From positions 540,001-572,000 of the forward strand of contig NC_000964.3 of the NCBI RefSeq assembly GCF_000009045.1: 32,000 nucleotides of DNA, read 5' to 3'. The translations under genes and the position numbers were made by a program. The notes under the pieces are model-generated. The model ran no database searches. It saw only the letters and a list, made by a program, of their open reading frames with translations, and was not told where the DNA came from. Below are positions 1-19,481 of this stretch, piece by piece. Origin of the DNA: Bacillus subtilis subsp. subtilis str. 168. Its GTDB lineage: Bacteria > Bacillota > Bacilli > Bacillales > Bacillaceae. The stretch's first letter is position 1. Every line of letters begins with the position of its first letter.

Positions 1-1229
1 GTTGGGTTGATCGTTTCCAAGAGCACACCGACTTAGAAAGTGCCATTATGTCCAGCCGTGATTTTGTCTTATTCCACCCTTTCTTAGCGAATCAGCAGTT
101 AAAAGGTTCAAAGACACGTTCTCCTCACTGCTTAATCACAGGAGACACAGGAAACGGCAAGTCATATCTAGCGAAATTGATCTTTAACTATATCAGCATG
201 TTAAACATCAAATCTCTGTATATAGACCCTAAAAAGGAAATGAGAAAGTGGATTCAAAGAGTCTTGAATGATGAGTACATTAGAGAGAACTTTCCCTTAT
301 ATATTGCACATTTAGAGAAATACAACTATATCACGCTAGATCATGAAAACACGCACAACTGGGGAGCGCTTGACCCTATCTCCTTCCTCCCTCCTATGAA
401 AGCAAAAGAGCTAGTTCAAGTCATTTTTGAACAAGTATATGACTTTAAAGGGAAGGACGACATAAACACAGCTTTCCTTCGTGCTACGTCAGAAGTGATT
501 GATGCGAAACAAAAAGGTGAACAGGTCGGCTCACTTGATATTATTCGGAAGATGCAGAGCCATCCCGAAGAAGCTGTACAAAAAGCTGGTGACTATTTAA
601 ATGAGGTCGTGTCAGATTCCATTTTGAAACTTTGTATTCATGATGGTTCAAATCCTGCATTGTCACTAGAAAAGCGAATTACCATTTTAGAAGTTGAAAA
701 TATGGATTTGCCGGATCATGCTGAGCGACTTGAAAACTACACGATATCACAACTAAAGTCTAGTGCGGTCATGTTTGCACTAGGTAAGTTCTGCGAGCTA
801 TTCGGCATGAATCAAGACGAACAGACTGTTGAATTTATAGATGAAGCTTGGATATTCACCACGTCACAACAAGGAAAAAAAGTAGAAAGACAAATGCGCC
901 GGATTGGTCGCTCATACAACAATGCGGAATACTTCATTTCTCAATCCACAAAAGACGCTTTAAAAGAAGAGGATTCTGGAAACTTTGGCGTTGCCTTTGC
1001 TTTTGACGAACCAAACGAGCGTGAAGAAGTGTTGAAATGGATGAACATGGAGGTCACAAAAGATAACAAAAAAATGATGGAATCCATGTTTCAAGGTCAA
1101 TGCTTATTTAAAGATTACTATGGCCGCACCTCTAAAATTTCGATTGAATGCCTATTCGAAGAATGGCAAGGTGCTCTGAAAACAGTTGAGAAAAAAGCCG
1201 TCGCATATGCGGAAGAAAAATATTTGTAA
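1..1229 (+). CDS. conE: VirB4-like conjugation ATPase ConE, C-terminal part. The frame is open from the window edge, so the gene is 5'-truncated by the window.
   Basis: The frame of the 48..1229 ORF has no stop back to position 3 (WVDRFQEHTDLESAIM...). Walker A is ITGDTGNGKSY and Walker B-like is VEFIDEAW. Confidence 0.93.
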   Translation, partial: WVDRFQEHTDLESAIMSSRDFVLFHPFLANQQLKGSKTRSPHCLITGDTGNGKSYLAKLIFNYISMLNIKSLYIDPKKEMRKWIQRVLNDEYIRENFPLYIAHLEKYNYITLDHENTHNWGALDPISFLPPMKAKELVQVIFEQVYDFKGKDDINTAFLRATSEVIDAKQKGEQVGSLDIIRKMQSHPEEAVQKAGDYLNEVVSDSILKLCIHDGSNPALSLEKRITILEVENMDLPDHAERLENYTISQLKSSAVMFALGKFCELFGMNQDEQTVEFIDEAWIFTTSQQGKKVERQMRRIGRSYNNAEYFISQSTKDALKEEDSGNFGVAFAFDEPNEREEVLKWMNMEVTKDNKKMMESMFQGQCLFKDYYGRTSKISIECLFEEWQGALKTVEKKAVAYAEEKYL

Positions 1230-1247
1230 AAAGGGGTTGAATCGTAC

Positions 1248-1574
1248 ATGGAAATAGCTTTCTTAAACTCTCTTGTTGTCACGAGTCCAGGCTTTTATAA
1301 AGCTGAGAAAATCACATTGGACGAAGTTAAACAATGGCTGAAGCATTATGATGGTCGATACAAAAGTTTTATCGGACATAAATCAACGGCACAGTTTCTG
1401 CAAAAATTATTAGGTATCAGAATTGAGCAAAATCGAAAGACTTTCAGACATATGAAATATCAAAAAGCAATCTGTTTCTCTCTGTATGAACGATATCCTG
1501 AAAACGTGTTGCTAACGCAAAGAGACTTAGAGAAAGCCAGATACCAATTTTATTTATTAACTCGGTTAGATTAG
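1248..1574 (+). CDS. yddF: Small conserved ICE protein of unknown function (108 aa).
   Basis: Tightly packed between conE and conG, with GGGG/GGTTG upstream of the ATG. Position and length match ICEBs1 yddF. I can name no catalytic motif. Confidence 0.85.
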   Translation: MEIAFLNSLVVTSPGFYKAEKITLDEVKQWLKHYDGRYKSFIGHKSTAQFLQKLLGIRIEQNRKTFRHMKYQKAICFSLYERYPENVLLTQRDLEKARYQFYLLTRLD

Positions 1575-1577
1575 GAG

Positions 1578-4025
1578 GTGGTTGTAATGAAAAAGAAAAG
1601 AATTTTGATTGTGTCGGCTATTGTGTTGCTGTTTTTAACTGTTGCTTCAGCTGTAACGGTATTTTCGGCTGATGGAGATACAACGACGCAGCCAAAAGTC
1701 GAAAAAGCTGGCGGCGTGGAATTGAAGGTGAAAAGGTTTCCAATCTCACGCTATCAAGCGAATAATGAAGCATCTGACGATTTAATCAAGGGGGCGTTTG
1801 TTGGGCTGACAAACGTCACTTTTTCTTTTGCGGGAAACATTGTCCGTGTGGTTGATACGGGGATGGATATTTTGTATAACTTGCAACCGATTGACGAGTT
1901 CGCAAATTCTATTACAAACGTCTCTAAAACAGTTTATAAAACACTGAAAAAGAATTTCGGTGAAGCTTTATTTATTTTCACGTGCGCCTATGTTGTCTAC
2001 CTATTCTGTGTGAGAGGTAGCGTAAAAGAAGCAATGCGGCGGAGTATTCTATTTATTTGTGTCATGGTGATCGGTGGGCTTTGGATGTCGAACGCTGGTT
2101 ATTACATGAAAGTATTGAATGCCTTGTCTGTAGAAGCTCAAGGAAAGCTTTTAACTGCGGGGAATGGATTGGTTGGCATTGTTCAAGATGAAGGCAATTT
2201 TGCAGACAGTTCAGCGATTGAAAAAGGAAAAGAAATGGAAGGCACAGTTGCGGTTATGCGTAATCTTTACTTTGACATTGCTTTGATGAAGCCTTTTTTA
2301 ATTGTGAATTTTGATGAAACAAGCGAAAAGAAAATCAATGAGGAAGATACAGATAAAGGCGGACTTAATCGTATAGATAAACTGCTTTCTTATAAGCTTT
2401 CAGAGGATGGAGAAAAAGATAAAAAAGATTATATAAAAGAGACTGAAATTGATGATTATAAAAATGAATCTATGACTTCTGGAAATGTGTTTAATCAGCT
2501 GGGAGAGTCTTTTATCGCTGTGGTCGCTTCTATTGTCATTGGGATACCATTTTTAGCATTAGCGTTCTTTAATTTCTTGCTTCAAGTTGTCGCTTTAGTG
2601 ATAGTTTTCTTTGTGCCATTTGCTTTCATCTTAGCGTATGTTCCTCAATTAGCTTATTCGGGATTTGTTACGCTTGGACGCTTGGGGAGTGTTTACCTAC
2701 TGAAAGCAATGTTAGGGGTTATCGTTCTGTTTGTGTACGTGACTTGTTTTATTGTTGACAAGTTAATACCGCCAAATGGTTTTGGAATGTATCTTTTAAA
2801 TGTTGCTGTCCTTGCTTCAATCTTGTGGATTGGTTTTCACAAGAGGGATGCCATTATCAAGTTTGTGACTGCTGGAAAAGTTGTTTCAGTTGATAATAAT
2901 ATGATGGAAAACATGAGACAAAACATTGTTCAGCCTGCTTGGGAACAAGCGAAGAAAATAGGTGGAGTATGGGGTAACGGAGGCGGCGTATTTACTGACT
3001 TTACAAAGCATTTTGGGGGAAGAAAAGACGGTTCGAATGCTGATGGCGTAACTGGTGCTCCAAGTGGTGGCGGTAATTCACCGAGTGGGACTGCTATGGG
3101 ATATGATAATACTCATGCTATTTCAAGAACCCCGCAAAAAGAAACAGCTAACGGAATAGCTAATCATAACAGTCGAAGCTTAAAACGCAATCCTCAAACT
3201 CTATCGAAAGAACAAGAAAAGCAAAAACAAAAAGAAGCCTTTGCAAATGCAAAAGAAAATAAACAGCAATCCCATTTAGCCAGATTGAGAAAAGACGGAA
3301 TAAACTCTCCTATGTTGAAAGATGCTTTGAATGAAGGGAATGAGGATTTATCCAAACGAGCACCTATCTTGCAGGATAAAAAAGATGAATCAGCACGAAC
3401 AGATCAAAAAGAATATGTGGAACAGCTTCTTAAACAGCCCAATAACCAGCAACAAACTGACGATGCATCATTACAGCATGAAGAAGAATCTACTTCTAAT
3501 CGTGCGCCTGTCTTACAAGAGAATGAAAAAGATACAGAACGTACTGATCAGAAAGCGTATATTTATGACGAACAAAATCAGAATCTTGAAACAGATCAGC
3601 AACAAGATTTTGAAGTCCAGAAAGATGATTCTGTTTCCAATAGTGAGCCTGTAGCACAAGAGAAAACAGCAGAAATCAAACGATCAGATCAAAAAGTCAT
3701 GATGAATCAACCTGAACCGCAGCTCGGTTTTGAAAGTCCTCAATCTACAAAAGTAGAAAATCAACCTATTGCCAATAACGAACGTAAAATCAGACCATCT
3801 GAACCCGCAAAAGTTCATTCAGATGGTATTCGTGTTGATGAAAAACAGGCTGTTGCTCCTGCTGAAAATAAGACTGTATCAAGAGAAAAACAGCCTTCAT
3901 CACAAACAATTAAACGGACTGAACAAAGCGTTAATTCATTTGACCAAGTGTCTTTGAATGAAATTGCAAGACGCTCTTCATCAAAAGTAGAAGATCGACT
4001 GAGAAGGGATGAAAGAACAAGATGA
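1578..4025 (+). CDS. conG: Polytopic VirB6-like mating-channel protein ConG (815 aa) with a long hydrophilic, repeat-containing C-terminal tail.
   Basis: SD TAGGAGGTGG lies upstream. There is an N-terminal signal/TM segment (ILIVSAIVLLFLTVASAV) and several further TM segments, e.g. ILFICVMVIGGLW, IAVVASIVIGIPFLALAFFNFLLQVVALVIVFFVPFAFILAYV and MYLLNVAVLASILWIGF. The Q/E/K-rich tail starts at about aa 480. Confidence 0.95.
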   Translation: MVVMKKKRILIVSAIVLLFLTVASAVTVFSADGDTTTQPKVEKAGGVELKVKRFPISRYQANNEASDDLIKGAFVGLTNVTFSFAGNIVRVVDTGMDILYNLQPIDEFANSITNVSKTVYKTLKKNFGEALFIFTCAYVVYLFCVRGSVKEAMRRSILFICVMVIGGLWMSNAGYYMKVLNALSVEAQGKLLTAGNGLVGIVQDEGNFADSSAIEKGKEMEGTVAVMRNLYFDIALMKPFLIVNFDETSEKKINEEDTDKGGLNRIDKLLSYKLSEDGEKDKKDYIKETEIDDYKNESMTSGNVFNQLGESFIAVVASIVIGIPFLALAFFNFLLQVVALVIVFFVPFAFILAYVPQLAYSGFVTLGRLGSVYLLKAMLGVIVLFVYVTCFIVDKLIPPNGFGMYLLNVAVLASILWIGFHKRDAIIKFVTAGKVVSVDNNMMENMRQNIVQPAWEQAKKIGGVWGNGGGVFTDFTKHFGGRKDGSNADGVTGAPSGGGNSPSGTAMGYDNTHAISRTPQKETANGIANHNSRSLKRNPQTLSKEQEKQKQKEAFANAKENKQQSHLARLRKDGINSPMLKDALNEGNEDLSKRAPILQDKKDESARTDQKEYVEQLLKQPNNQQQTDDASLQHEEESTSNRAPVLQENEKDTERTDQKAYIYDEQNQNLETDQQQDFEVQKDDSVSNSEPVAQEKTAEIKRSDQKVMMNQPEPQLGFESPQSTKVENQPIANNERKIRPSEPAKVHSDGIRVDEKQAVAPAENKTVSREKQPSSQTIKRTEQSVNSFDQVSLNEIARRSSSKVEDRLRRDERTR
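3334..3700 (+). repeat. Three imperfect tandem coding repeats (period about 141-144 nt, 47-48 aa) inside the ConG C-terminal tail.
   Basis: The repeat cores are DLSKRAPILQDKKDESARTDQKEY, STSNRAPVLQENEKDTERTDQKAY and SVSNSEPVAQEKTAEIKRSDQKVM. The Ser codons of the cores sit at 3351, 3495 and 3636. Confidence 0.8.
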
Positions 4026-5011
4026 TAAGTAAAAAGGTAGTTCTTCCTTTGGTATTCTCGGCTCCTTTTATCTTCTTTTTTGTTTTATGTATCGTAGTGG
4101 TTATGACGATTTCAAGAGAAAATCAAGTCGGGGACGATTTTATAGGCGGCGGGGATGGCGAATATGAAACAGTTGGAATTGCGCCGGAAGTGGAACGATT
4201 TAGAGCAGTATTTGAGAAATATGCCCGTCAAGAAGGCGTTTTTGACCAAGTGAATATTATTATGGCGCTCACCATGCAAGAAAGTGGTGGGCGTTCTTTA
4301 GATATCATGCAAAGTTCCGAAAGTATCGGCTTACCTCCCAACTCCATAACTGACCCAGAACGTTCAATTGAAGTCGGCATTAAACATTTTAAGAAGGTTT
4401 TTAAACAGGCTGGCGGTGATGTTCGTTTAACCTTACAGGCATACAACTTTGGTTCTGGATTTATAGACTATGTCAAAAAGAATGGCGGGAAATACACAAA
4501 GAAATTAGCACTTGATTTCAGCCGATTGCAAGCTTTTAAAATGGGCTGGAAAAGCTACGGTGACCCAAGTTATGTTGACCATGTCATGAGGTATGTGAAA
4601 GGCTCTGATAAAAATGTGAAGCCTGTGAAAGGCTCTATGGATTTCTATGAAACGGTCATGAAAGAAGCTTTGAAATATGAAGGGCAACCGTATGCCTGGG
4701 GAGGTTCAAACCCGGAAACTGGATTTGATTGTTCTGGCCTTGTTCAGTGGTCTTTTGCGAAAGCTGGAATCACTCTTCCTAGAACAGCACAAGAACAACA
4801 TGGGGCAACCAAGAAAATAAGTGAAAAAGAAGCGACTGCGGGTGACTTAGTGTTCTTTGGCGGCACATACGAAGGAAAAGCCATTACTCACGTCGGCATC
4901 TATGTAGGCAATGGCAGAATGTTTAATTCAAATGACAGTGGAATCCAATATTCTGATCTGAAATCAGGTTACTGGAGAGATCACCTTGTATCTTTTGGAC
5001 GCATTAAATAA
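4022..5011 (+). CDS. cwlT: Bifunctional cell-wall hydrolase CwlT: an N-terminal lysozyme-like muramidase domain and a C-terminal NlpC/P60 endopeptidase domain.
   Basis: The start overlaps the conG stop (ATGA at 4022-4025). There is an N-terminal TM segment. The muramidase motif is LTMQESGGRS. The NlpC/P60 Cys is in GFDCSGLVQW and the His is in ITHVGIYVG. Confidence 0.95.
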   Translation: MISKKVVLPLVFSAPFIFFFVLCIVVVMTISRENQVGDDFIGGGDGEYETVGIAPEVERFRAVFEKYARQEGVFDQVNIIMALTMQESGGRSLDIMQSSESIGLPPNSITDPERSIEVGIKHFKKVFKQAGGDVRLTLQAYNFGSGFIDYVKKNGGKYTKKLALDFSRLQAFKMGWKSYGDPSYVDHVMRYVKGSDKNVKPVKGSMDFYETVMKEALKYEGQPYAWGGSNPETGFDCSGLVQWSFAKAGITLPRTAQEQHGATKKISEKEATAGDLVFFGGTYEGKAITHVGIYVGNGRMFNSNDSGIQYSDLKSGYWRDHLVSFGRIK

Positions 5012-5532: not shown

Positions 5533-5585
5533 AAGGTGGAAAAGATCAATTTGTTTGTTTATACTAAATATTGAAAAAGGAGGTA

Positions 5586-5975
5586 ATGTTTATTTTGAAA
5601 AACCTTTTTATTTTCCTTAGTTTGATGATGATGTTTGTTTTAACTGCATGTGGTGGAAGCAAGTATGATGATGCGATTGATGATGTAATTAGCCAATATA
5701 AAGAGCATAAAGGAAATGACACAGAGATAAATATTAAAAGAGAGAATGCGATTGTTAGAGTCTATGAAGGGGGCAAATATATTCAGTTTGCATTTTATAT
5801 GCCGGATAACTCTTCACGTGAATTAACAACATTTAAGTATTATGAAAAATTTGGAGATAAATATGAAAAGATGACTGATATGCCGGGGAATGGGGAAAAT
5901 GATCGTCTGGGGTTATCAAAGAAAACACCAGACTATGAAGAAGTAAAAGGAGAAGAGACAGAGTTAGAGGAGTAA
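5586..5975 (+). CDS. yddJ: Lipoprotein YddJ, the ICEBs1 exclusion protein.
   Basis: The track ORF starts at TTG 5571, but AAAGGAGGT (5575-5583) sits directly before ATG 5586. The signal peptide with lipobox is MFILKNLFIFLSLMMMFVLTAC-GG. Confidence 0.9.
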   Translation: MFILKNLFIFLSLMMMFVLTACGGSKYDDAIDDVISQYKEHKGNDTEINIKRENAIVRVYEGGKYIQFAFYMPDNSSRELTTFKYYEKFGDKYEKMTDMPGNGENDRLGLSKKTPDYEEVKGEETELEE

Positions 5976-5998
5976 ACCGTGTGTTTACTCCTCTTTTA
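5969..5998 (+). terminator. Intrinsic terminator ending the conjugation operon after yddJ.
   Basis: Stem GGAGTAAAC (5969-5977) pairs with GTTTACTCC (5983-5991). The loop is 5 nt and is followed by TCTTTT. Confidence 0.75.
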
Positions 5999-6165
5999 GT
6001 TTTATTGACATTGGTAAAACAGAGATAGGGTAAGAACTTAGCTAATTAAGAATGAAAATTATAAGGTTTATAAGTTGGAAACTAAATCAAATATGTCTTC
6101 TAAGAATAGATTTATGGGTAAAAGTTGTTTTTACACTATTGGTGCTACTAGCAGTGGCATTTAAG

Positions 6166-6966
6166 TTATTTTAATTTCGTATTAAATTTAGCCTTTATCC
6201 TTTCCCATTTTTTATCTTCTAATGTGAGATCATACATACGGAGTATTTTTTCTTTTAAATTAAATAAGTCTATTGGTTCCTCCAAGGAGAATGCTTTTTT
6301 ATTTTTATCAATTACTCCTTTTATTTCGCCCTTAAAACCAGGGAGGATGAAAGTAGAGCAGTTATTGCTATTCACCCAAGTAGCCCCCATTTCATTAAGG
6401 CAGTATACGCTATCATAGTAATTATCGGATAACATATAAAAGACATATGCACCCTTAAAAAGATGTTTTTTTAGATATTCGAAAATATCTTCATCTCCAG
6501 GAATACCATGATAAGGTGAAGAAGTGTATATTATATCTTCAGAAGACACTCCTATATCCTCTAGTAATTCAACGAAAGCATTACATACAATTTTGTCTTT
6601 TGAGGAGTGGCTAATAAATATTTTTTTCTCTAATTCTCTATTTTGATCACTTGAAAAGTGAGTTATGCTGCTTTTTTCAGTCTCATCTACTACAGGCAAT
6701 TCATCTAAAAATTTTTTTATTTTATTTTCTGTTTCATGATGTTCAAACTCATTAAAAACAAATTCATTTTTATATATTTCATTGCGGTTTCGTGCATACC
6801 AAGTCTTAAGTTGTTCTAGTGAATAACGAATTAACTCAATATCATTTGATTCAAGAGATGTTCGAAATTGATCAATAATATTTGTGAGTACAGGCTCGCG
6901 AGAGTAATCTAGAAGTACTCCTATAATTCCATTAGCCTCAAATTTTAATTTTTTTAATGTGTCCAT
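6166..6966 (-). CDS. spbK: TIR-domain protein (266 aa): a helical N-terminal domain plus a C-terminal TIR domain. This is the abortive-infection anti-phage protein SpbK (YddK).
   Basis: SD GGAGGAAATCTA precedes the ATG on the minus strand. TIR hallmarks are KIFISHSSKD (aa 115-124) and SDNYYDSVYCLNEMG (aa 180-194), with Glu192 in the catalytic-Glu position. It is the only minus-strand gene in the ICE arm and is very AT-rich. Confidence 0.92.
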   Translation of the reverse strand: MDTLKKLKFEANGIIGVLLDYSREPVLTNIIDQFRTSLESNDIELIRYSLEQLKTWYARNRNEIYKNEFVFNEFEHHETENKIKKFLDELPVVDETEKSSITHFSSDQNRELEKKIFISHSSKDKIVCNAFVELLEDIGVSSEDIIYTSSPYHGIPGDEDIFEYLKKHLFKGAYVFYMLSDNYYDSVYCLNEMGATWVNSNNCSTFILPGFKGEIKGVIDKNKKAFSLEEPIDLFNLKEKILRMYDLTLEDKKWERIKAKFNTKLK

Positions 6967-7225
6967 TAGATTTCCTCCGACCTAATTTAATCCATTGTTT
7001 GTAAACATTTCATATCTAATTATATAACATAGACTCCTATTCTAACTACTTATTTTAAAGCAGTCTGGATTGTTTGGGTAATTCATAAAAAAATAAAAGA
7101 AAGAAGGAGGAATAGAGTTTTTCTTTTTTTTGTTTGCAATGTTACTGTCAAGTCGCAAAAGAATTGCTATGACCGAAAAAAAACCGCAAAGGAATAGATA
7201 TAAGGTACCTTTTTGCAATTCATCT

Positions 7226-7254
7226 TTGTAAAATAAAGGTTATTCTGACATAAT
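7226..7254 (+). promoter_or_regulatory. Candidate sigma-A promoter for rapI-phrI.
   Basis: TTGTAA (7226-7231), a 17-nt spacer, then CATAAT (7249-7254), about 50 nt upstream of the rapI start. This is sequence match only. Confidence 0.3.
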
Positions 7255-7305
7255 ACAATTAATGTAAAAATTCGCACAATTTTATGTAAGGATGGGGGAA
7301 TTTTC

Positions 7306-8481
7306 TTGCGGGGTGTTTTCTTAGATAAAGATAAAATTCCGTACGACTTAGTCACGAAAAAGTTAAATGAATGGTATACATCAATAAAAAATGATCAAGT
7401 TGAGCAAGCCGAGATTATAAAAACAGAAGTAGAGAAAGAATTGTTAAACATGGAAGAAAATCAAGATGCCCTGTTATATTATCAACTATTAGAATTTAGA
7501 CATGAGATAATGCTGAGTTATATGAAATCTAAGGAAATAGAAGATCTCAATAATGCTTATGAGACTATAAAAGAAATTGAGAAGCAAGGGCAATTAACTG
7601 GCATGTTGGAATACTATTTTTACTTTTTTAAGGGTATGTACGAGTTTAGGCGTAAAGAATTAATTTCAGCGATAAGTGCTTATCGAATAGCTGAATCAAA
7701 GTTGTCAGAAGTTGAGGATGAAATAGAGAAAGCAGAGTTTTTTTTCAAAGTGTCCTATGTATATTATTATATGAAACAAACATACTTCTCCATGAATTAT
7801 GCAAATCGTGCACTCAAAATATTTAGAGAGTATGAAGAATATGCTGTCCAGACTGTGCGTTGTCAATTTATTGTAGCAGGAAACTTGATCGATTCATTGG
7901 AATATGAAAGAGCCTTGGAACAATTTTTGAAGTCTTTGGAAATTTCCAAGGAAAGTAACATAGAGCATTTAATTGCAATGTCACATATGAATATTGGGAT
8001 TTGTTATGATGAATTGAAAGAATATAAGAAGGCTTCACAACATTTAATTTTAGCGTTAGAAATTTTTGAAAAATCAAAACATAGTTTCTTAACAAAGACT
8101 TTATTCACTCTAACCTATGTAGAAGCAAAACAACAAAATTATAATGTTGCTTTGATATACTTTAGGAAAGGGCGATTTATTGCCGATAAAAGTGATGATA
8201 AGGAATACTCAGCGAAATTCAAAATATTAGAGGGATTATTTTTTTCTGATGGTGAGACTCAATTAATAAAGAATGCATTTTCATATCTGGCTTCGAGAAA
8301 AATGTTTGCTGATGTTGAAAATTTTTCGATTGAAGTCGCTGATTATTTTCATGAACAAGGAAATTTAATGCTCTCTAATGAATATTATCGTATGAGTATT
8401 GAAGCAAGACGAAAAATTAAAAAAGGGGAGATTATTGATGAAAATCAGCCGGATTCTATTGGCAGCAGTGATTTTAAGTAG
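7306..8481 (+). CDS. rapI: Rap-family TPR regulator RapI, the activator of ICEBs1 induction (391 aa).
   Basis: TTG start preceded by GGATGGGGG. The body is TPR-rich and typical of Rap proteins, and a phr gene overlaps its 3' end. Confidence 0.95.
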   Translation: MRGVFLDKDKIPYDLVTKKLNEWYTSIKNDQVEQAEIIKTEVEKELLNMEENQDALLYYQLLEFRHEIMLSYMKSKEIEDLNNAYETIKEIEKQGQLTGMLEYYFYFFKGMYEFRRKELISAISAYRIAESKLSEVEDEIEKAEFFFKVSYVYYYMKQTYFSMNYANRALKIFREYEEYAVQTVRCQFIVAGNLIDSLEYERALEQFLKSLEISKESNIEHLIAMSHMNIGICYDELKEYKKASQHLILALEIFEKSKHSFLTKTLFTLTYVEAKQQNYNVALIYFRKGRFIADKSDDKEYSAKFKILEGLFFSDGETQLIKNAFSYLASRKMFADVENFSIEVADYFHEQGNLMLSNEYYRMSIEARRKIKKGEIIDENQPDSIGSSDFK

Positions 8482-8557
8482 TGTATTTTCAATAACTTAT
8501 TTGCAAAGTGATCATAATACTGAAATTAAAGTTGCTGCAGATCGGGTAGGGGCATAG
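8438..8557 (+). CDS. phrI: PhrI signalling-peptide precursor (39 aa). This ORF is absent from the ORF track.
   Basis: ATG 8438 overlaps the rapI 3' end in another frame, with SD AAAGGGGAG upstream. The translation is MKISRILLAAVILSSVFSITYLQSDHNTEIKVAADRVGA: a signal peptide plus the C-terminal pentapeptide DRVGA. The stop is TAG 8555-8557. Confidence 0.93.
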   Translation: MKISRILLAAVILSSVFSITYLQSDHNTEIKVAADRVGA

Positions 8558-8579
8558 CTTAGATAATTGGAAAAGAGGA

Positions 8580-8620
8580 AAAAAGCTTAATCTTTTTTCG
8601 AAGGTTAAGCTTTTTCTTTT
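8580..8620 (+). terminator. Intrinsic terminator after phrI.
   Basis: AAAAAGCTTAA (8580-8590) pairs with TTAAGCTTTTT (8605-8615), followed by CTTTTATTT. Confidence 0.7.
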
Positions 8621-8709
8621 ATTTATAAAAAGTGAACTAACTATCAGAAAGAAATTATATTAAATTTTATTTTTTTGTTTAAAAAGTAGATTATATAAAG
8701 GCAAGCTAG

Positions 8710-9651
8710 GTGGGGGAAAATATGTTTAAAAAAGAAAAAGTCACAGAATACATTTGGACTATACTAATACCAACAATCATCACTTTTATCATTAGTTGGG
8801 TTGGGTCTTATTACAATGGTACTTCGACAGTTAGTATTGGACAACCTACAAAAGTTTCCGGTCAGTATATCACGCCAATAAATATAAGTCCCTATCATGA
8901 TATTAAGGAATTAAGAATAACTTTTCCGCAAAAACTAGATGTAAAACAAATTAGTTCAAATGAGCCTATAAATGTAAAATCAGATAAGAACAATATAGGA
9001 GTTGAAAGTAATTCCACTTTTGAGATTGCGAAAATCGTTGAAAATAATAGCGTTCAGTTGCTAATTACAACACAAAAAAAGTTAAACGATAAGGAAATTA
9101 GAATTGATAAAAATGGAAATAACATTTCTGTAAATTATGAATCTCAGATTGTTAATCCTGCAAAAAAACAATTAATCAATCTTATAATTACGTCATCTAT
9201 TTATTTTATAATGCTTAATATACTAGCATTGATTATGAACAAAAGATGGGATAAGTATTATGCAAAAATGAAAAATGAAATCAAAGAATTTGAGGATAAT
9301 GCAAAAGATCTTGATAAAAAATCAAAGAAGAAAAGCGAGGAATTATCGGAGCTGCGAAAGACCTTGAACCAAGCGTTTGAGGAAACTGATAGGATAAAAT
9401 ATCATGAGAAGAAAAAACAAATCCTCCTCTTAGCTAAGTTAAACGATTATAAAAAAGAACTAACCTTTTGGAGAAATACAATAAGAAAAGTTCTTTATGA
9501 ACTTCCTGATGGAGATAAAAAAGCAGATAAACTAATAGGGACAGTTACATCATCTTTAAAAACGTACGGTACAGTCGAAAAAAACGAGCATGATTATGAA
9601 AGTTTAAAAGTAGCAGCTGCCTTACTAAATGATTCTGATAAGAGATCGTAA
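8710..9651 (+). CDS. yddM: Uncharacterised ICE cargo protein with the layout TM, extracytoplasmic domain, TM, charged cytoplasmic coiled coil.
   Basis: The track start is GTG 8710. ATG 8722 (MFKKEK...) behind AGGTGGGGG is the more likely start. TM1 is [22 protein letters not shown] and TM2 is [22 protein letters not shown]. The C-terminal ~130 aa are K/E-rich with a heptad-like pattern. It is the last gene before attR. Confidence 0.85.
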
Positions 9652-9872
9652 TGTACTGGATTTTAATAAACTATTAGAAAGAAGATTAGCTGCAAACATC
9701 AGAACGACCAAACAATGGTGGTATGTTTATAGAGTTTAGTTGTTGAAAAGGGCGAACTATGAGTTTGCTGCCCATTTACTGCCCAGAATAAATAACAAAT
9801 CATGAAAATCAGTGTAAATAAAATAACTTAATGCTATAAATAAAGGCTTTTGTAAATAAAGATATGATTTTA

Positions 9873-9932
9873 CTAGGTTGAGGGCCTAGTGGGTGAATAA
9901 CCCGTGGAGGTTCAAGTCCTCTCGGCCGCATC
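9873..9932 (+). repeat. attR: attR of ICEBs1, consisting of the 3' portion of the tRNA-Leu (trnS-leu2) gene. It is not a complete tRNA.
   Basis: CTAGGTTGAGGGCCTAGTGGGTGAATAACCCGTGGAGGTTCAAGTCCTCTCGGCCGCATC contains the variable arm, T-arm (GGAGGTTCAAGTCCTCT) and acceptor 3' strand. The exact repeat borders cannot be verified because attL is outside the window. Confidence 0.8.
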
Positions 9933-9934
9933 TC

Positions 9935-9976
9935 AATAATACCAAGGGTTTAACCACCTTTGGTATTATTTTTTTG
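9935..9976 (+). terminator. Intrinsic terminator of the tRNA operon directly after attR.
   Basis: A 14-bp stem, AATAATACCAAGGG (9935-9948) with CCTTTGGTATTATT (9957-9970), followed by TTTTTT. Confidence 0.85.
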
Positions 9977-10135
9977 TGTGGAAAATACGGCTATGGGAGA
10001 AGACTTGCTCACCAAAACTCACCAGTTACTTAAAGTAAGTCATCCAAACGGTCGGCGGTTCCTTCTGTTTATTAGGAAAAAGATATCCGTTCATTGTAAA
10101 AGAAACGAACCATGTCCTATTCGTTCAAAAAAACT

Positions 10136-10185
10136 AAAGGGTGATACATATTATACATGATTAATATGTATCACCCTTTTCTTTC
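10136..10185 (-). terminator. Strong bidirectional hairpin terminator downstream of yddN.
   Basis: AAAGGGTGATACATATT (10136-10152) pairs with AATATGTATCACCCTTT (10163-10179). It is flanked by an A-run on the left and a T-rich run on the right. Confidence 0.8.
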
Positions 10186-10239
10186 TTGTTCAACAATCGC
10201 GCTTGAGGAGAACATAAGCTAATACAACTGACTCGATTT

Positions 10240-11259
10240 CTAAAGTTGCTCCATTCTTTTTTTAAACAACTCATCCACAACCTGTTTTAAAATCTCGTAC
10301 GACTGAATTTCCTTGCTCAATTCGTAAATATTAGATAACACAATTAATTCATCTGCGTGATACATTTGTTGGAAATCAATTAGTTCGCGACGAATTGTTT
10401 CTCGATCACCCATGATTGTATACCCCAGTCGACTGTGGAGAATTTCTAATTCAAACTGTGATAACGATTCTAGGAAGTTTTCAGTGGGTGGAATAAGCTT
10501 ACTTAAATTATTTGTATAAATATCAATATACACCTGCAAATGACTTGCAGAAATAAAAGATGCCTCGTCTATAGATTCTGCTGCAATCACATTAATGCAA
10601 GCGATCACATAAGGTTCTTGTAAATAAGAAGACGGTTGGAAATTTTCTCGATAAATAGAGAGCGCTTCTTCCATCGAATGGGGTGAAAATTGAGCGCCAA
10701 ATGCATAGGGTAAACCAAGCTTTGCAGCAATTTCCGCTGAATCCGTTGAGGATCCTAACACAAAAACAGGCACATGCGTTCCAATACCCGGATAAGCGCG
10801 AACCTCACCCTGTACACTCTTATCCCCGACAAAACGCAAAATATCATTTACTTCTCTTTCAAAGAAAAACACTCCATTATGGTTGGAACGACGAATCACA
10901 TCGGCCGTTTTTTGATCCGTTCCGGGTGCGCGTCCTAATGCCAAATCTACACGATTTGGATATAATGTTTCAAGTGTTCCAAATTGCTCCGCTACGATTA
11001 ATGGGGAATGATTTGGCAACATAATACCCCCTGAACCTACGCGAATGTCTTTTGTATTTGCTAATATATGTTGTACAATTGATACGGTTGCTGCACTTGC
11101 ATAAGCGTCGTGATTATGATGCTCTGCAAACCAAATCCGTTTATAGCCCATATTATCTACAGCTTTAGCTAATGACACTGCAGAATCAATCCCTTGTTTC
11201 ATTGTTTCTCCTTGTCTTAATGGAGCAACTGATAAAACAGATATATCAAATTTTTTCAT
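10240..11259 (-). CDS. yddN: Luciferase-like (LLM-class) flavin-dependent oxidoreductase (339 aa).
   Basis: SD GAGGTGAAATT precedes the ATG. The N-terminal pattern is typical of the LLM family (SVLSVAP...WFAEHHN...GSGGIMLPNHSPL). Confidence 0.9.
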   Translation of the reverse strand: MKKFDISVLSVAPLRQGETMKQGIDSAVSLAKAVDNMGYKRIWFAEHHNHDAYASAATVSIVQHILANTKDIRVGSGGIMLPNHSPLIVAEQFGTLETLYPNRVDLALGRAPGTDQKTADVIRRSNHNGVFFFEREVNDILRFVGDKSVQGEVRAYPGIGTHVPVFVLGSSTDSAEIAAKLGLPYAFGAQFSPHSMEEALSIYRENFQPSSYLQEPYVIACINVIAAESIDEASFISASHLQVYIDIYTNNLSKLIPPTENFLESLSQFELEILHSRLGYTIMGDRETIRRELIDFQQMYHADELIVLSNIYELSKEIQSYEILKQVVDELFKKRMEQL

Positions 11260-11518
11260 AATTTCACCTCTAAAATAATGAACTTATACAAGATCAATGG
11301 AAAAAACATTTTGAAAAATTGTTTCATATTAAATGGTGTCCATTCCTCTTTGATTTGCATGCAAATAAATATATACTTTCTCAAACGATCAATACATAGG
11401 CAAAATAAAGTTATTTCACAATTTCACTTTACTTTTAAAGTTTTAAGCAAACATAAAAAAATGTTCAGTGAACAAAATATGTAAAATACATCTTATTTTT
11501 CAGAAAGGATACAAGAAA

Positions 11519-11929
11519 ATGATTGATGAAATAGATAAAAAAATACTTGATGAGCTGTCTAAAAATAGTCGCCTTACAATGAAAAAATTAGGGGAAAAAG
11601 TACATCTCACTGCACCAGCAACCGCATCAAGAGTAGTAAAGTTAATAGACAATGGCATAATAAAAGGATGTAGTATCGAAGTGAATCAAGTGAAATTAGG
11701 CTTCTCTATACATGCTTTTCTTAATATTTATATCGAAAAAATCCATCATCAACCCTATTTAGCTTTTATAGAAACACAAGATAACTATGTAATAAACAAT
11801 TATAAAGTTAGTGGAGACGGTTGCTATTTGCTTGAATGTAAATTTCCTTCAAACGAGGTATTAGATCAATTTTTAAATGACTTAAATAAACATGCAAACT
11901 ATAAAGTGTCGATTGTTATTGGTAAATAG
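11519..11929 (+). CDS. lrpA: Lrp/AsnC-family transcriptional regulator.
   Basis: The family N-terminus MIDEIDKKILDELSKNSRLTMKKLGEKVHLTAPATASRV starts at ATG 11519. The track extension from GTG 11468 lacks an SD and family similarity. Confidence 0.9.
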   Translation: MIDEIDKKILDELSKNSRLTMKKLGEKVHLTAPATASRVVKLIDNGIIKGCSIEVNQVKLGFSIHAFLNIYIEKIHHQPYLAFIETQDNYVINNYKVSGDGCYLLECKFPSNEVLDQFLNDLNKHANYKVSIVIGK

Positions 11930-11982
11930 TTAACTTTATAAAACGGAGATGTGCGGTCATATAACATGATATATATGCTCTA

Positions 11983-12029
11983 AAAAAGCCCTAGGTTGGA
12001 TATGGAATTTACCAAGCTGGGGCCTTTTT
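11983..12029. terminator. Imperfect bidirectional hairpin between convergent lrpA and lrpB.
   Basis: AAAAAGCCCTAGGTTGG pairs with CCAAGCTGGGGCCTTTTT, with one bulge and two mismatches. Confidence 0.5.
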
Positions 12030-12051
12030 ATACATTATAATAACAAGCGCA

Positions 12052-12501
12052 TTATTCATCAGACATTAATGAAGTATTATAATGCTTTTTTACTTCCTTA
12101 ATAGACAAATAAAGCTGATAGTTTCCATACTTCAATAAATCATTCAGAAGGTGATTTAAAACTTCTTGTGAATGAACCGTTACCTTCAGAAGATAACATG
12201 CATCTCCCGAAACACGATGAGCTTCGCTAATTTCATTACGAGTAGCAATAAATTTCAATAAATCATCATGCATATATGCATTCATGAAAAAGAAGACAAA
12301 GGCTGTAAAAGAAAACCCCATCTTCAATTCATCAACCACAATCGAATATGCTTTAATGATACCGTTATCCTCCATTTTTTTGATGCGATTGCCTACCGCT
12401 TGTCCTGTCATATGAATTTTTTCACCGATTTCTTTCCATTGTATCCGAGCATTTTTATTTAATAATTGGAGAATTTGAAAATCAATTGAATCAATTTGCA
12501 T
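12052..12501 (-). CDS. lrpB: Lrp/AsnC-family transcriptional regulator, paralogue of lrpA.
   Basis: ATG at 12501 (MQIDSIDFQILQLLNKNARIQWKEIGEKIHMTGQAV...) is preceded by AAAGGAG. The track start at 12516 sits inside the SD. Confidence 0.9.
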   Translation of the reverse strand: MQIDSIDFQILQLLNKNARIQWKEIGEKIHMTGQAVGNRIKKMEDNGIIKAYSIVVDELKMGFSFTAFVFFFMNAYMHDDLLKFIATRNEISEAHRVSGDACYLLKVTVHSQEVLNHLLNDLLKYGNYQLYLSIKEVKKHYNTSLMSDE

Positions 12502-12615
12502 AGTAACTCCTTTCACAGTGAAAAAGTTTTACAAAATAGTATTTCATGAGACCATCGAAAATTCAATGGAAATTATATATCCTTATACAGTATAAAAATT
12601 TTAAGAGGTGAAAAA

Positions 12616-13158
12616 ATGACAACAGCTTTATTAGTGATTGATATTCAAAATGATTACTTTCCAAATGGGAAGATGGCTTTAACAAACCCAGAGAAAGCAG
12701 CACAAAATGCGGCTAAACTACTTTCACACTTTAGAAACACAGGCGCACCTGTCTTTCATGTACAGCATATCACAGAAGGTAACATCGCTCATTTTTTCCA
12801 TCCAAATACAGAAGGTGTCGAAATTCATGAGTCAGTACGTCCATTAGAGAAAGAGACAGTCATTGTAAAACATATGCCGAATAGCTTTTTCAATACAGAT
12901 TTAAATGGAAAGCTACAAGAAGAAGGGGTTAAAGAATTAGTTGTTTGCGGTATGATGTCCCATATGTGTATTGATGCAACAGTTCGTTCTGCAGTTGAAC
13001 ATGGTTATGTATGCCAAGTGGTAGAAGATGCTTGCGCAACAACAACATTGCAAATTGAAGATAAAATCGTTCCTGCTGAGCATGTCCATTACGCATTTAT
13101 GGCCGCATTAAATGGTGTCTATGCAACAGTAAAAACCACAGAGGCATTTTTAAAATAA
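12616..13158 (+). CDS. yddQ: Isochorismatase-family cysteine hydrolase (180 aa).
   Basis: SD AAGAGGTG. Family hallmarks are LLVIDIQNDYF and the Cys motif VVCGMMSHMCIDATVRSA. Confidence 0.9.
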   Translation: MTTALLVIDIQNDYFPNGKMALTNPEKAAQNAAKLLSHFRNTGAPVFHVQHITEGNIAHFFHPNTEGVEIHESVRPLEKETVIVKHMPNSFFNTDLNGKLQEEGVKELVVCGMMSHMCIDATVRSAVEHGYVCQVVEDACATTTLQIEDKIVPAEHVHYAFMAALNGVYATVKTTEAFLK

Positions 13159-13221
13159 AAGAATTTCCTGCGCGAACATAACGTCTTTCTTTTCACAAGA
13201 AAGATGATTCAACAACTTAAA

Positions 13222-13262
13222 AAAGGATGTTCAGAAAAATACTTCTGGACATCCTTTATTCA
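13222..13262 (+). terminator. Intrinsic terminator after yddQ.
   Basis: A 15-bp stem (one G-U pair), AAAGGATGTTCAGAA (13222-13236) with TTCTGGACATCCTTT (13243-13257), followed by a T-rich tail. Confidence 0.7.
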
Positions 13263-13264
13263 TT

Positions 13265-13575
13265 ATCTTTTATTGTTTTTCAGTATCATTATTCCCATCT
13301 GATAAAAGATCAAGATGTCCTGTTTTTGATCCATAGTAAGACCATATACAGGGATTGTTTTTGCCATAAATATAGATATTGATGAAGGTTTACATAAAGC
13401 ACCTAATTGCTTGATTTACTTTAATGTTAGATCCCTCAATAACTCCATTCTCTTCTAATTTCTCTACTCTAGCTGTAGCTGCTGGGCATGTTAAATGTAC
13501 TCTCTCCCAGATCTTTCATTGAATTCGGCTATTATACATAATTTCTCTATAATTTTTTATCTGTTTGATCTATTT
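13265..13575 (-). pseudogene. Decayed third Lrp/AsnC-family gene carrying stops, a frameshift and a truncation.
   Basis: Minus-strand translation gives DQTDKKL*RNYV**PNSMKDLGE, then after a frameshift VHLTCPAATARVEKLEENGVIEGSNIKVNQAIRCFM*TFINIYIYGKNN. This is colinear with LrpA (KVHLTAPATASRVVKLIDNGIIKGCSIEVNQVKLGFSIHAFLNIYIEK). Confidence 0.65.
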
Positions 13576-13710
13576 GAACGTTAATTCCTTTCGAAAATAA
13601 AGTCAAAGAGTTAAAACACTTTTTTTTATCTATGTATTCGAACACTGCTGATATTATACACTTAACTCTGTCGATCTAAGACAAATAAAAAAAGAAAGTG
13701 AGTTGTAAAT

Positions 13711-14475
13711 ATGAATATTACACAAATTCGAAATGCAACAATTGTTGTAAAATACGCAAATAAAAAATTTTTGATAGATCCTATGTTAGCAGAGAAAGGT
13801 ACGTACGCTACTTTCCCTGAAACGATCAGACAAGATTTATTTAATCCTTTGGTGAGTTTGCCAACATCAATTGATAACATTCTGGATGGCGTAGATGCGG
13901 TAATTGTTACTCATCTACACCTAGATCACTTTGATGATGTGGCAAAAAACGTATTGCCAAAAAACATCAAAATGTTTGTTCAAAATGAAGCAGATGCAAA
14001 AGAAGTAAAAGCAAGTGGTTTCAAAAATGTAGAAGTGCTACATCAAGACACTGTTTTTGAAGGGATCCAATTAGTAAAAACAAAAGGTGAACATGGCAGA
14101 GGGGAAGAGTTATTAAACTTAATGGGTGATGTTTGTGGATTAGTATTCAAGCACCCAAGTGAAAAAGTTTTATATGTAGCTGGGGATACAGTTTGGTATG
14201 ATGCTATCGAAGACGAGATTCATACACATCAACCAGAAATCATTGTGGTTAATGGTGGAGACAATCAAAGATTAGATTTAGGTTCACTCATCATGGGAAA
14301 AGAAGACATCTATGAAGTTCACAAGGCTGCTCCTCATGCTAAGATTATATCTGTTCATATGGAAGCTGTTAACCATTGGACACTATCTAGAGAAGAATTA
14401 AAAAACTTTAGTAAAGAAAAAGGATTCTCAAGTAATATTTTAGTGCCAGAAGATGGCGAGTCTTACACATTTTAA
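13711..14475 (+). CDS. yddR: Metallo-beta-lactamase-fold hydrolase (254 aa).
   Basis: The HxHxDH motif is VTHLHLDHFDD. The SD-like sequence AAAGTGAG lies upstream. Confidence 0.9.
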   Translation: MNITQIRNATIVVKYANKKFLIDPMLAEKGTYATFPETIRQDLFNPLVSLPTSIDNILDGVDAVIVTHLHLDHFDDVAKNVLPKNIKMFVQNEADAKEVKASGFKNVEVLHQDTVFEGIQLVKTKGEHGRGEELLNLMGDVCGLVFKHPSEKVLYVAGDTVWYDAIEDEIHTHQPEIIVVNGGDNQRLDLGSLIMGKEDIYEVHKAAPHAKIISVHMEAVNHWTLSREELKNFSKEKGFSSNILVPEDGESYTF

Positions 14476-14495
14476 TATGAACACCGACAAATAAA

Positions 14496-14540
14496 TAGAA
14501 GAAGCTCATAATTATAAAAACTAATCATGAGCTTCTTCTA
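14496..14540. terminator. 14-bp hairpin after yddR, a possible terminator with no clean T-tract.
   Basis: TAGAAGAAGCTCAT (14496-14509) pairs with ATGAGCTTCTTCTA (14527-14540). Confidence 0.5.
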
Positions 14541-14668
14541 ATAATGAATATTTTAAATTTTAAATATATCGAAAATCCTAAATATACGGAATAACAAAAA
14601 TGGAATGTTCCAATGATGACAAAAAAACTTGAAAAGCAACAAAGATGTGTCGTTAGGAGGTAGAATTC

Positions 14669-15979
14669 ATGGTAATGACAAAAAAAGATACAAATATATC
14701 AACACAGCAGCCTCTTTGGTTACAAGGTTATATTGATTCACCAGAAAAACAAAACCAACTTTATAAAAAAACATTAAAAATCTTGATTTTTTCACAAATA
14801 TTTGGGGGAGCAGGACTTGGAGCTGGGATAACAGTTGGGGCGCTTCTTGCACAAGATATGATAGGATCGGAAAATGTAGCAGGAATTCCAACTGCCCTCT
14901 TTACTTTTGGATCTGCCGTAGCTGCCCTGCTTATAGGAGCATCCTCACAACGTTTTGGTCGCAGAGCTGGACTTGCAGGTGGTTTCCTTATAGGCGGATT
15001 AGGTGCTATAGGTGTGATAATCGCGGCTTTAATTAACAGCGTTGCCCTATTATTTGTTTCTCTTCTTATTTATGGAGCAGGTATGGCTTCTAATCTTCAA
15101 GTTCGGTATGCTGGGACAGACCTTGCAAATGAGAAACAACGGGCAACTGCTGCAAGTATGGCCTTAGTTTCTACTACTTTAGGAGCTGTAGTAGGTCCTA
15201 ACTTAGTTAATACAATGGGGGAATTTGCAGATTCAATTGGTGTTCCCAATTTAGCTGGTCCGTTTATTATGTCAGGAGCAGCTTTTATAATTGCTGGAAT
15301 TATTCTCTTAATTTTTCTTCGTCCAGATCCGCTGTTTGTATCAACAGCTATTGCGAATGCTGAGAAAAAAGACGATAAAGTACAAATAGGAGGAAGTCTA
15401 AAAAATCCTGCTATAGACAAAAAAGGAATAATGGTAGGAGCTGTCATTATGATTTTAGCTCAACTAATCATGACAGCTATTATGACAATGACACCGGTTC
15501 ACATGGGTCATCACGGTCATGGTTTAAGCGAAGTGGGATTAGTTATAGGACTCCATATTGCAGCGATGTATCTTCCTTCACCATTGACTGGTTTATTAGT
15601 AGATAAGTTTGGTCGCACAACTATGGCTATTGCTTCAGGTGCCACACTTCTTGCCGCTGGGTTGGTGGCAGCTATTGCACCGGCAGACTCATTATCATTG
15701 CTAATCCTAGCACTAGTATTACTAGGGGTAGGTTGGAACTTTGGTTTACTAACGGGAACTGCCCTTATTATAGATTCAACACATCCATCTCTACGTGCAA
15801 AAACACAGGGAACATTCGATGTTTTATTAGCACTATCAGGAGCAGCAGGTGGAGCCTTGTCAGGAATGGTTGTTGCACATTCTAGTTATACAATACTATC
15901 AATTTCTGGAGCCGTTTTATCATTGTTACTCATTCCAGTAGTTATTTGGTATTTTAGAAGGATTCAGGAAAAAGCATAA
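14669..15979 (+). CDS. yddS: MFS transporter (436 aa, about 12 TM segments), colinear paralogue of ydeG.
   Basis: SD AGGAGG lies 8 nt upstream. The MFS motif is GRRAGL after TM2. The protein is hydrophobic throughout. Confidence 0.92.
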   Translation: MVMTKKDTNISTQQPLWLQGYIDSPEKQNQLYKKTLKILIFSQIFGGAGLGAGITVGALLAQDMIGSENVAGIPTALFTFGSAVAALLIGASSQRFGRRAGLAGGFLIGGLGAIGVIIAALINSVALLFVSLLIYGAGMASNLQVRYAGTDLANEKQRATAASMALVSTTLGAVVGPNLVNTMGEFADSIGVPNLAGPFIMSGAAFIIAGIILLIFLRPDPLFVSTAIANAEKKDDKVQIGGSLKNPAIDKKGIMVGAVIMILAQLIMTAIMTMTPVHMGHHGHGLSEVGLVIGLHIAAMYLPSPLTGLLVDKFGRTTMAIASGATLLAAGLVAAIAPADSLSLLILALVLLGVGWNFGLLTGTALIIDSTHPSLRAKTQGTFDVLLALSGAAGGALSGMVVAHSSYTILSISGAVLSLLLIPVVIWYFRRIQEKA

Positions 15980-16561
15980 GCTTATATAACTGTCTTTGAA
16001 GAACCTAAGTAGACATTACTTTACCGGAACCTCCTTTTTCTATTTATTATAGTAAGGAGTTGACATGGCATTAGTGGCATGTGTATAACTACACAATTAT
16101 TTGGGATTCAGAGAGCATGTAATGAACGGAAGAGATAATTATTTATCACTTTTATTATTGTACGGTGTTCTTGTGGCATTAAGTTCAGTCAATTTTGGTC
16201 TAACTGTTTTCTTTTTGTTTTCATCACCTCTCCATATTATTAACAAACACGAAAAGGATTTTAATGAAAATAAAATGATTAGCGTATGTATCTCTAATTT
16301 TCAAAATGAATGAATAGTCCTTTTTAAGATTTACACACTTATTCTCCAAGGAAAAATGACTCAATTTTTCGATTTTTTATGTAAATCAAAAAAGAATCAT
16401 GTTAGAGTAGGTGTGCTGAAAATAATTCAAAAAATTATTTTGCGATATGATTAAAGTAATATTGCCAGAGAGTTTCAATTGGACAAAATTGTAAGTGTTT
16501 AATACACTGGGGCTGCAATCAAATATGCACCTGGAATCAATTGCTAAACGGGGGAGTTTAT

Positions 16562-16738
16562 ATGAACAACAAGAAAAATATCTTTGATATTGTTATGTAC
16601 ATTATTTTCGGTGTGTTAAGTCTTTTTCTAGTTGCAAAAACTGATTATGGCACTGGAGTTTTAGTGTTTGTTGCAATTTTATACCTCGCTGTTATTGCTT
16701 ATAAAATTAAGCAAGTATTTAGTAATTCAGATTCTTAA
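16562..16738 (+). CDS. Small two-TM membrane protein (58 aa), possibly ydzM of strain 168.
   Basis: GGGGGAG lies 7 nt before ATG 16562. The TM segments are IFDIVMYIIFGVLSLFLVA and GVLVFVAILYLAVIAY. The gene lies 24 nt upstream of yddT. Confidence 0.6.
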   Translation: MNNKKNIFDIVMYIIFGVLSLFLVAKTDYGTGVLVFVAILYLAVIAYKIKQVFSNSDS

Positions 16739-16762
16739 GGTGTAACACAAGGAGGATTTCAA

Positions 16763-17449
16763 TTGAGAAAGAAAAGAGTTATTACTTGTGTTATGGCTGC
16801 ATCATTGACTTTAGGCTCACTTTTACCTGCAGGTTACGCTTCTGCAAAGGAGGACTCTAAGACAACCCCTTCTTACGAAGAACTAGCTCTACATTACAAA
16901 ATGAAAAGTGAAAAGATTTCATCGAACGGGAAATTAGTTGAAATTGAGTATGTGAGTGGAAATGAAACTCACAAAGTTCAGATGAACGGAAATAATCATA
17001 CTGTAAAAGTCGATGGCATAGAACAAAAAGGTTTAAACTTTGAGTATGATGAAAATGTTGCTAAAAGAACAAATTATGAAAACAATAATTTGAAATCAAA
17101 TGAATTCACAACACAGGCTGCAAAACCTAAAAAGGGATACCATTATGTGGGGACTTTATCTGGGCATACAAAAGCAGCTAAAAATGCGTTATCAGTTACA
17201 ATGTCATTAGTCGGTATTGTCCCTGGCTTGGGATGGGGGAGTAAGGCTGCCACTATTTTATTCTCTTATTGGGCAAAAGAACAAATCCCTGATGCGTATT
17301 ATAAATATGATTTATACGAAAAAGGAGCAATGACTGATAGTTGGTATCAGTATGCTACAGTTCAATTTTTTGAAGATAAAGCTCATAAAAAGAAAATGGG
17401 CAAACCTTGGACAAGTACTCCTGCAAAAGTAGATTTACCTAATAGCTAA
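16763..17449 (+). CDS. yddT: Secreted protein of unknown function (228 aa).
   Basis: AAGGAGG lies upstream of a TTG start. The Sec signal peptide is MRKKRVITCVMAASLTLGSLLPAGYASA-KE. Confidence 0.85.
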   Translation: MRKKRVITCVMAASLTLGSLLPAGYASAKEDSKTTPSYEELALHYKMKSEKISSNGKLVEIEYVSGNETHKVQMNGNNHTVKVDGIEQKGLNFEYDENVAKRTNYENNNLKSNEFTTQAAKPKKGYHYVGTLSGHTKAAKNALSVTMSLVGIVPGLGWGSKAATILFSYWAKEQIPDAYYKYDLYEKGAMTDSWYQYATVQFFEDKAHKKKMGKPWTSTPAKVDLPNS

Positions 17450-19001: not shown

Positions 19002-19263
19002 TTTGCTGGAAATGATTTTCCCGAATAGGGGGCTTTGCGATTGAGTTGAATTTCCTAATAAAGCAAAGAAAGATGATTTGAGGTCAAGTTTAACAAATAA
19101 TGCCATCAATATTAATTTGCAGTTATTTCCGATTCCTGATATAATAAAGAAGAATTATTTTTGTTCGGTGTAAAGGATAGTATGAAGATTGACTTTTCGT
19201 CTTGATGATACTTTGGGCAAGGATAGTATATACTGTGTGGTTACACACTAGGAGGCAACAAAA

Positions 19264-19464: not shown

Positions 19465-19481
19465 TCTTCAATCGTTTATAC

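Follow-up and report, generated by a model that had tools for sequence, protein, structure and literature searches.

The ICEBs1 gene spbK (yddK) in Bacillus subtilis 168, a known stand-alone TIR-domain abortive-infection gene

We analyzed a window of 32,000 nucleotides from Bacillus subtilis subsp. subtilis str. 168 (NC_000964.3, positions 540,001 to 572,000); all coordinates below are those of this whole stretch. The 266-amino-acid open reading frame (ORF) on the minus strand at 6166 to 6966 is spbK (yddK), an already-known gene of ICEBs1, and no difference from the published SpbK was detected. The best explanation of this gene is that it encodes the ICEBs1 abortive-infection TIR NADase that is triggered by YonE (probability of about 0.97), and nothing that we found contradicts this reading. 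Our own analysis established which gene this is, that it belongs to the TIR family, that its catalytic residue is conserved, that it lies in an ICE, and that no partner gene is linked to it. The NADase activity, the triggering by YonE, the filament structure, the inhibitor Nip, and the phenotypes were taken from papers on the exact protein (PMC8880864, PMC11984713, and PMC12847820). Genetic, biochemical, and cryo-EM studies of SpbK, as well as chemical inhibitors of it, were published between 2022 and 2026, so that the remark in the original prediction that the gene was "probably not undescribed" was apt, and nothing is added here as a discovery. The coding sequence, its parts, and its signals are as follows.

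6166 to 6966, minus strand: spbK (yddK) coding sequence, ATG start, 266 codons plus stop (ORF list)
6974 to 6978, minus strand: ribosome-binding site GGAGG of spbK, 7 nt 5' of the ATG, read from the sequence
6685 to 6966, minus strand: N-terminal four-helix-bundle sensor domain, amino acids 1 to 94 (limits from PMC11984713 and PMC12847820)
6622 to 6684, minus strand: flexible linker, amino acids 95 to 115 (limits from PMC11984713)
6169 to 6621, minus strand: TIR NADase domain, amino acids 116 to 266 (Pfam TIR_2 and cryo-EM model 9PHB)
6391 to 6393, minus strand: codon GAA of the catalytic Glu192, position read from the sequence
7019 to 7024, minus strand: candidate -10 box of a putative constitutive promoter of spbK itself, a perfect TATAAT read from the sequence

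The translated ORF was identical to PDB chain 9PHB_G, which is named SpbK (100% identity over all 266 amino acids, E = 3.4e-177, PDB sequence search). An exact-sequence look-up returned the UniProt entry YDDK_BACSU, "Uncharacterized protein YddK," from Bacillus subtilis, and the same sequence was present on at least 1,000 contigs, whose source names were B. subtilis and Bacillales. These two exact matches settle the gene as yddK/spbK of the B. subtilis ICEBs1, as stated in the original prediction. The PADLOC spbK model matched amino acids 1 to 265 (E = 5.1e-99), PADLOC models of ThsB gave weak matches (E = 1e-6 to 1e-5), and none of the NCBIfam models matched SpbK. The profile search that had been proposed as a check of the TIR domain returned Pfam TIR_2 as the single Pfam match, at amino acids 116 to 210 (E = 9.4e-7), with 29.8 bits, just over the gathering score of 28 bits. 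Because this score is barely above the threshold, it is the solved structure and the alignment of the family that carry the TIR assignment. For a sequence identical to SpbK, residues 111 to 266 have been resolved by cryo-EM (9PHB) in what is described as a canonical TIR fold, and the C-terminal bacterial TIR domain is thereby upheld.

The ORF, its two TIR motifs, and Glu192 all lie where they had been placed from the letters of the DNA (ORF list and sequence). KIFISHSSKD spans amino acids 115 to 124 and SDNYYDSVYCLNEMG spans amino acids 180 to 194, with Glu192 inside the CLNEMG motif, in the alphaC region. A single-sequence AlphaFold2 model of SpbK had a mean pLDDT of 52.5 and a pTM of 0.41, with most of the TIR core below 50, too poor to inform on the TIR fold. 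This low-confidence model placed helices at amino acids 2 to 21, 25 to 40, 43 to 64, and 73 to 89, and its pLDDT was below 50 for amino acids 91 to 112. The helical N-terminal part of about 110 amino acids had been proposed as a candidate sensor. The sensor role holds, as SpbK(1-115) is sufficient for binding to YonE (PMC11984713), but the extent needs correction: the four-helix bundle covers amino acids 1 to 94, a linker follows at 95 to 115, and the TIR domain starts at 116.

The G+C content of spbK was 29.7% compared with 36% for the whole window. In a consensus scan of the minus strand, a full -35/-10 pair was absent from 6967 to 7305, and no clear terminator was found 3' of spbK, beyond 6166. 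A 40-amino-acid ORF on the plus strand (6052 to 6174) overlaps the stop codon of spbK; nothing supports it as a gene, and it was taken as spurious.

Next, relatives of SpbK were collected by a scan of one genome per species, which gave 22 loci, and 20 full ORFs from these loci were aligned with SpbK (21 sequences). Glu192, Trp197, Ser119, His120, Asp124, and Ser180 were invariant in all 21 sequences, and Asn191 was kept in 20 of them. All 13 representative TIR segments matched Pfam TIR_2, with a best E value of 3.6e-11. A profile built from these TIR segments matched 9PHB (4.8e-62) and Cat1 (9.3e-5), a TIR NADase associated with CRISPR. The core CLNEMGA.W (motif CLNEMGATWV of the SpbK-type TIR module) was kept in relatives from Clostridia, Bacilli, Bacteroidales, and some virome contigs. 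A few virome contigs and Enterococcus phage records encode such relatives: the protein of MT836075.1 aligned with SpbK over the full length (28.7% identity), and those of MT839190.1, PQ520404.1, and OR846631.1 aligned with the SpbK TIR domain alone (38 to 42% identity). These records are unannotated.

[quoted passage not shown] The other loci (L002 to L021) encode SpbK-type TIR domains that are joined to unrelated N-terminal regions, carry C-terminal extensions of about 110 to 250 amino acids, or stand alone (153 amino acids). In the Desulfosporosinus MAG (8260 to 17290 of that locus), the SpbK orthologue adjoins a Phd/YefM antitoxin gene and a DUF499-DUF3780-DUF1156 gene trio, which we take to be a predicted restriction-like defence cluster. 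The setting of this orthologue thus resembles a defence island rather than an ICE.

The surroundings of spbK in the window were then compared with ICEBs1. The neighbouring features are as follows.

4022 to 5011: cwlT, exact CwlT copy (exact-sequence look-up)
5571 to 5975, plus strand: yddJ, convergent neighbour encoding a DUF4467 lipoprotein (Pfam DUF4467, 2.3e-28), context and not a partner
7306 to 8481, plus strand: rapI, divergent neighbour, ICE activation module, context only (exact RapI match; Pfam RapH_N and TPR)
Ending at 8557, plus strand: phrI, which follows rapI
8710 to 9651, plus strand: yddM, exact YddM copy (exact-sequence look-up)
9872 to 9931, plus strand: remnant of a tRNA 3' end with approximate limits, read as attR and the right end of the ICE (T-arm GGTTCAAGTCC and acceptor strand)

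The exact CwlT, RapI, and YddM neighbours, together with the tRNA-3' remnant, show that spbK belongs to the cargo at the right end of ICEBs1, where yddJ lies on one side of it and rapI-phrI-yddM on the other. Such a remnant is expected for the attR of a tRNA-integrated element, so that the window includes the right-hand part of ICEBs1. An Rfam tRNA match at 9846 to 9930 reached 22 bits, below the gathering score of 29, and ARAGORN called no intact tRNA at the right end of the ICE. Directly after the remnant is a hairpin with a 15-bp stem and a T-run (9935 to 9970), and we interpret remnant and hairpin together as the attR of the ICE followed by the terminator of the tRNA. Another terminator-like hairpin was found at yddJ (5966 to 5994, consensus scan).

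The genes to the left of spbK encode a conjugation ATPase (AAA_10), a small STIV-B116-like protein, an 815-amino-acid protein, and the DUF4467 lipoprotein. The 815-amino-acid ORF (1578 to 4025, plus strand) occupies the position of ConG and had no Pfam match at E ≤ 0.001. The small protein is a 108-amino-acid ORF at the position of YddF (1248 to 1574, plus strand), which matched Pfam STIV_B116-like at 1.2e-36 and PADLOC Csx16 at 1.6e-10. Proteins with the STIV_B116-like fold include one from an archaeal virus and one associated with CRISPR. YddM is labelled a "helicase" in some sources; this label was unsupported in Pfam and PADLOC, and Pfam showed a sub-threshold DegS-like coiled coil (22 compared with 27.6 bits).

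The G+C content of the cargo block from 6000 to 10000, containing spbK, rapI-phrI, and yddM, was 29 to 31%, compared with 38 to 42% for the conjugation genes at 1 to 5000, which suggests separate acquisition of the block. The terminal block of ICEBs1 is reported to be variably present (bioRxiv 10.64898/2026.05.14.725270). In the same study, 20 of 53 genomes with ICEBs1 carried spbK, and the gene was linked to prophages bearing yonE.

Among the eight ORFs surrounding spbK, Pfam and PADLOC showed no SIR2, ThsA-like, or STING-type gene beside it, which bears out the expectation that spbK has no adjacent partner. YddJ and RapI had no PADLOC matches. The sole PADLOC matches among the neighbours were the Csx16-like ORF, which is 4.6 kb away among the conjugation genes (1248 to 1574), and a generic oxidoreductase outside the ICE. 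A two-gene, Thoeris-like reading was ruled out, since a ThsA-type neighbour was absent and the ThsB models matched weakly (E = 1e-6 or weaker). The published genetics agree with a stand-alone gene. Johnson, Harden, and Grossman found that spbK is necessary and sufficient for the block of SPbeta by ICEBs1 through abortive infection, that spbK alone suffices for defence, and that defence is still intact after deletion of rapI-phrI (PMC8880864). The block was observed upon infection and upon prophage induction alike, and coexpression of spbK with the phage gene yonE led to growth arrest and death (PMC8880864). Protection from SPbeta by abortive infection, which was named in the original prediction, is therefore on record for this gene.

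The trigger and the enzymatic activity have been described for the same protein. Loyo and Grossman showed that the portal protein YonE of SPbeta triggers depletion of NAD+ by SpbK and that the SpbK N-terminal domain binds the clip domain of YonE, whereupon the TIR NADase is active (PMC11984713). The trigger is thus a phage structural protein, as had been supposed (PMC8880864, PMC11984713, and PMC12847820). The clip-domain mutant YonE(A291P) showed weaker binding to SpbK and partial escape (PMC11984713). The substitution E192Q (GAA to CAA) abolished NAD+ depletion, toxicity or growth arrest, and defence, so that the proposal of the TIR domain itself as the effector, with Glu192 as the catalytic residue, is confirmed (PMC11984713). 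By cryo-EM, Mishra et al. resolved both the TIR filament of SpbK (9PHB) and the dodecamer of YonE (9PHA), and NMR and LC-MS assays identified ADPR and N1-cADPR as the products (PMC12847820). In their proposal, one portal can take as many as six SpbK dimers, and this docking forces a head-to-tail TIR assembly that forms the active site (PMC12847820). The docking of SpbK on the YonE clip is at present described only by AlphaFold 3 models and mutagenesis. Overexpression extends the response of SpbK to divergent portals, phi29 Gp10 among them, but brings autoimmunity (bioRxiv 10.1101/2023.11.30.569366).

A counter-defence in SPbeta-like phages had also been named; it corresponds to Nip (phi3T_120), which is encoded by Phi3T and not by SPbeta itself, binds the SpbK TIR domain, and inhibits its NADase (PMC11984713). 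SpbK thus has a matching phage-encoded inhibitor. Small-molecule inhibitors of SpbK lead to release of SPbeta (bioRxiv 10.64898/2026.05.14.725270).

Taken together with these reports, the locus can be described by the following model. spbK is expressed constitutively at a low level from its own promoter, and in the uninfected cell SpbK is an inactive dimer joined via its TIR domains. When a phage of the SPbeta family makes the dodecameric portal YonE, the four-helix bundle (amino acids 1 to 94) docks on the clip domains, and a composite active site with Glu192 arises in the resulting assemblies. NAD+ is then cleaved into nicotinamide plus ADPR and N1-cADPR, cellular NAD+ collapses, and the infected cell halts growth and dies, releasing no phage progeny. 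Phi3T escapes because Nip, bound to the TIR domain, blocks the NADase. According to this model, spbK is a textbook-quality example of a single-protein immune sensor-effector carried by an ICE, in which direct recognition of an assembled portal leads to TIR clustering and NAD+ collapse. The gene also serves as a positive control for the genome scan, in which raw sequence was enough to recognize it as a defence gene and to point out both the catalytic residue and the sensor domain.

We compared SpbK with known systems. The closest is SpbK/YddK of ICEBs1 itself, with the same 266 amino acids (100%), the same flanks (yddJ, rapI-phrI, and yddM), and the same position at the ICE right end; no difference was detected. 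Thoeris ThsB is likewise a bacterial TIR protein that has a conserved catalytic Glu and uses NAD+, and some ThsB proteins sense phage structural proteins, as SpbK does (PMC12847820). However, unlike SpbK, Thoeris cannot work without ThsA, an effector encoded in the same operon and activated by the product of the TIR protein. SARM1, AbTir, TIR-STING, TIR-SAVED, and Cat1 resemble SpbK in that their active site is created by TIR domains assembled head to tail in two strands, with oligomerization driven by an accessory domain (PMC12847820). The platform for SpbK differs from that of these clustering TIR NADases: it is a foreign assembly, the phage portal 12-mer, to which SpbK binds through its small four-helix bundle, and not a nucleotide-binding or SAM domain. 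Avs4, a STAND NTPase, likewise recognizes infection by way of a phage portal protein (PMC12847820). In contrast to SpbK, which is modelled on the assembled dodecamer, Avs4 uses a TPR sensor to bind portal monomers and acts through another effector.

Several other readings of the gene were weighed against NAD+ depletion in host defence. The one that survives best, although we consider it unlikely to be the main account, is that the principal selected role of spbK is competition between mobile elements, in which a resident SPbeta is kept "domesticated" and the ICE is protected, rather than defence of the host. The block of phage release from lysogens (PMC8880864) and the location of spbK in a variably present cargo block of low G+C content fit this idea. 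In addition, spbK in ICEBs1 correlates with yonE in SPbeta (P = 0.021), and both genes occurred in 16 of 18 co-resident strains (bioRxiv 10.64898/2026.05.14.725270). However, de novo infection is blocked as well (PMC8880864), and the molecular mechanism would be identical, so that the evolutionary framing alone differs.

The killing step leaves room for a second activity. NAD+ depletion alone is accepted as the way in which SpbK kills, but the proof is incomplete: N1-cADPR is a further product of the enzyme, and NARP1, a phage pathway that reconstitutes NAD+, relieves the growth defect caused by SpbK and YonE only partly (PMC12847820). A signalling role of N1-cADPR has been raised as a question (PMC12847820). 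We regard as rather doubtful, and offer only as a tentative suggestion, that the SpbK-type TIR domain is a portable cassette with swappable sensors, each for a different phage assembly, or that N1-cADPR signals to an unlinked receptor in B. subtilis. If such a receptor were used, SpbK would be both a signalling and a depleting enzyme.

Still less probable is the stronger form of this idea, that SpbK is mainly a signal generator whose N1-cADPR acts through an unlinked host receptor or effector to arrest growth, as ThsB does in Thoeris, with NAD+ loss as a secondary event. N1-cADPR is made by SpbK both in vitro and in infected cells, NARP1 suppresses the toxicity only in part (PMC12847820), and SpbK has weak matches to the ThsB models (E = 1e-6). 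However, Pfam and PADLOC showed no effector gene beside spbK, and spbK and yonE kill cells without all other ICEBs1 and SPbeta genes (PMC8880864). Moreover, the drop in NAD+ is sharp and depends on E192 (PMC11984713), and B. subtilis has no known N1-cADPR receptor. Finally, the notion that the SpbK TIR domain is only a scaffold for protein-protein interaction, like animal TLR adaptors, and not an enzyme, which would fit the marginal Pfam TIR_2 score and a passage of the 2022 paper that first described the domain in terms of protein-protein interaction (PMC8880864), can be dismissed, as all 21 aligned family members keep the catalytic Glu, purified SpbK cleaves NAD+, E192 substitution kills function in cells, and the published NADase assays and E192Q phenotype have already refuted it (PMC11984713 and PMC12847820).

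Some minor features lie beyond the ICE end, in the chromosomal part of the window. A near-perfect palindrome with an 18-bp stem (10136 to 10179), terminator-like on both strands, is located between the ICE end and a convergent luciferase-like monooxygenase gene (10240 to 11259). On the plus strand, gathering-level Rfam matches were found for a cspA thermoregulator (19183 to 19512, 80.9 bits) and for the BsrC small RNA (19894 to 19980, 99.4 bits).
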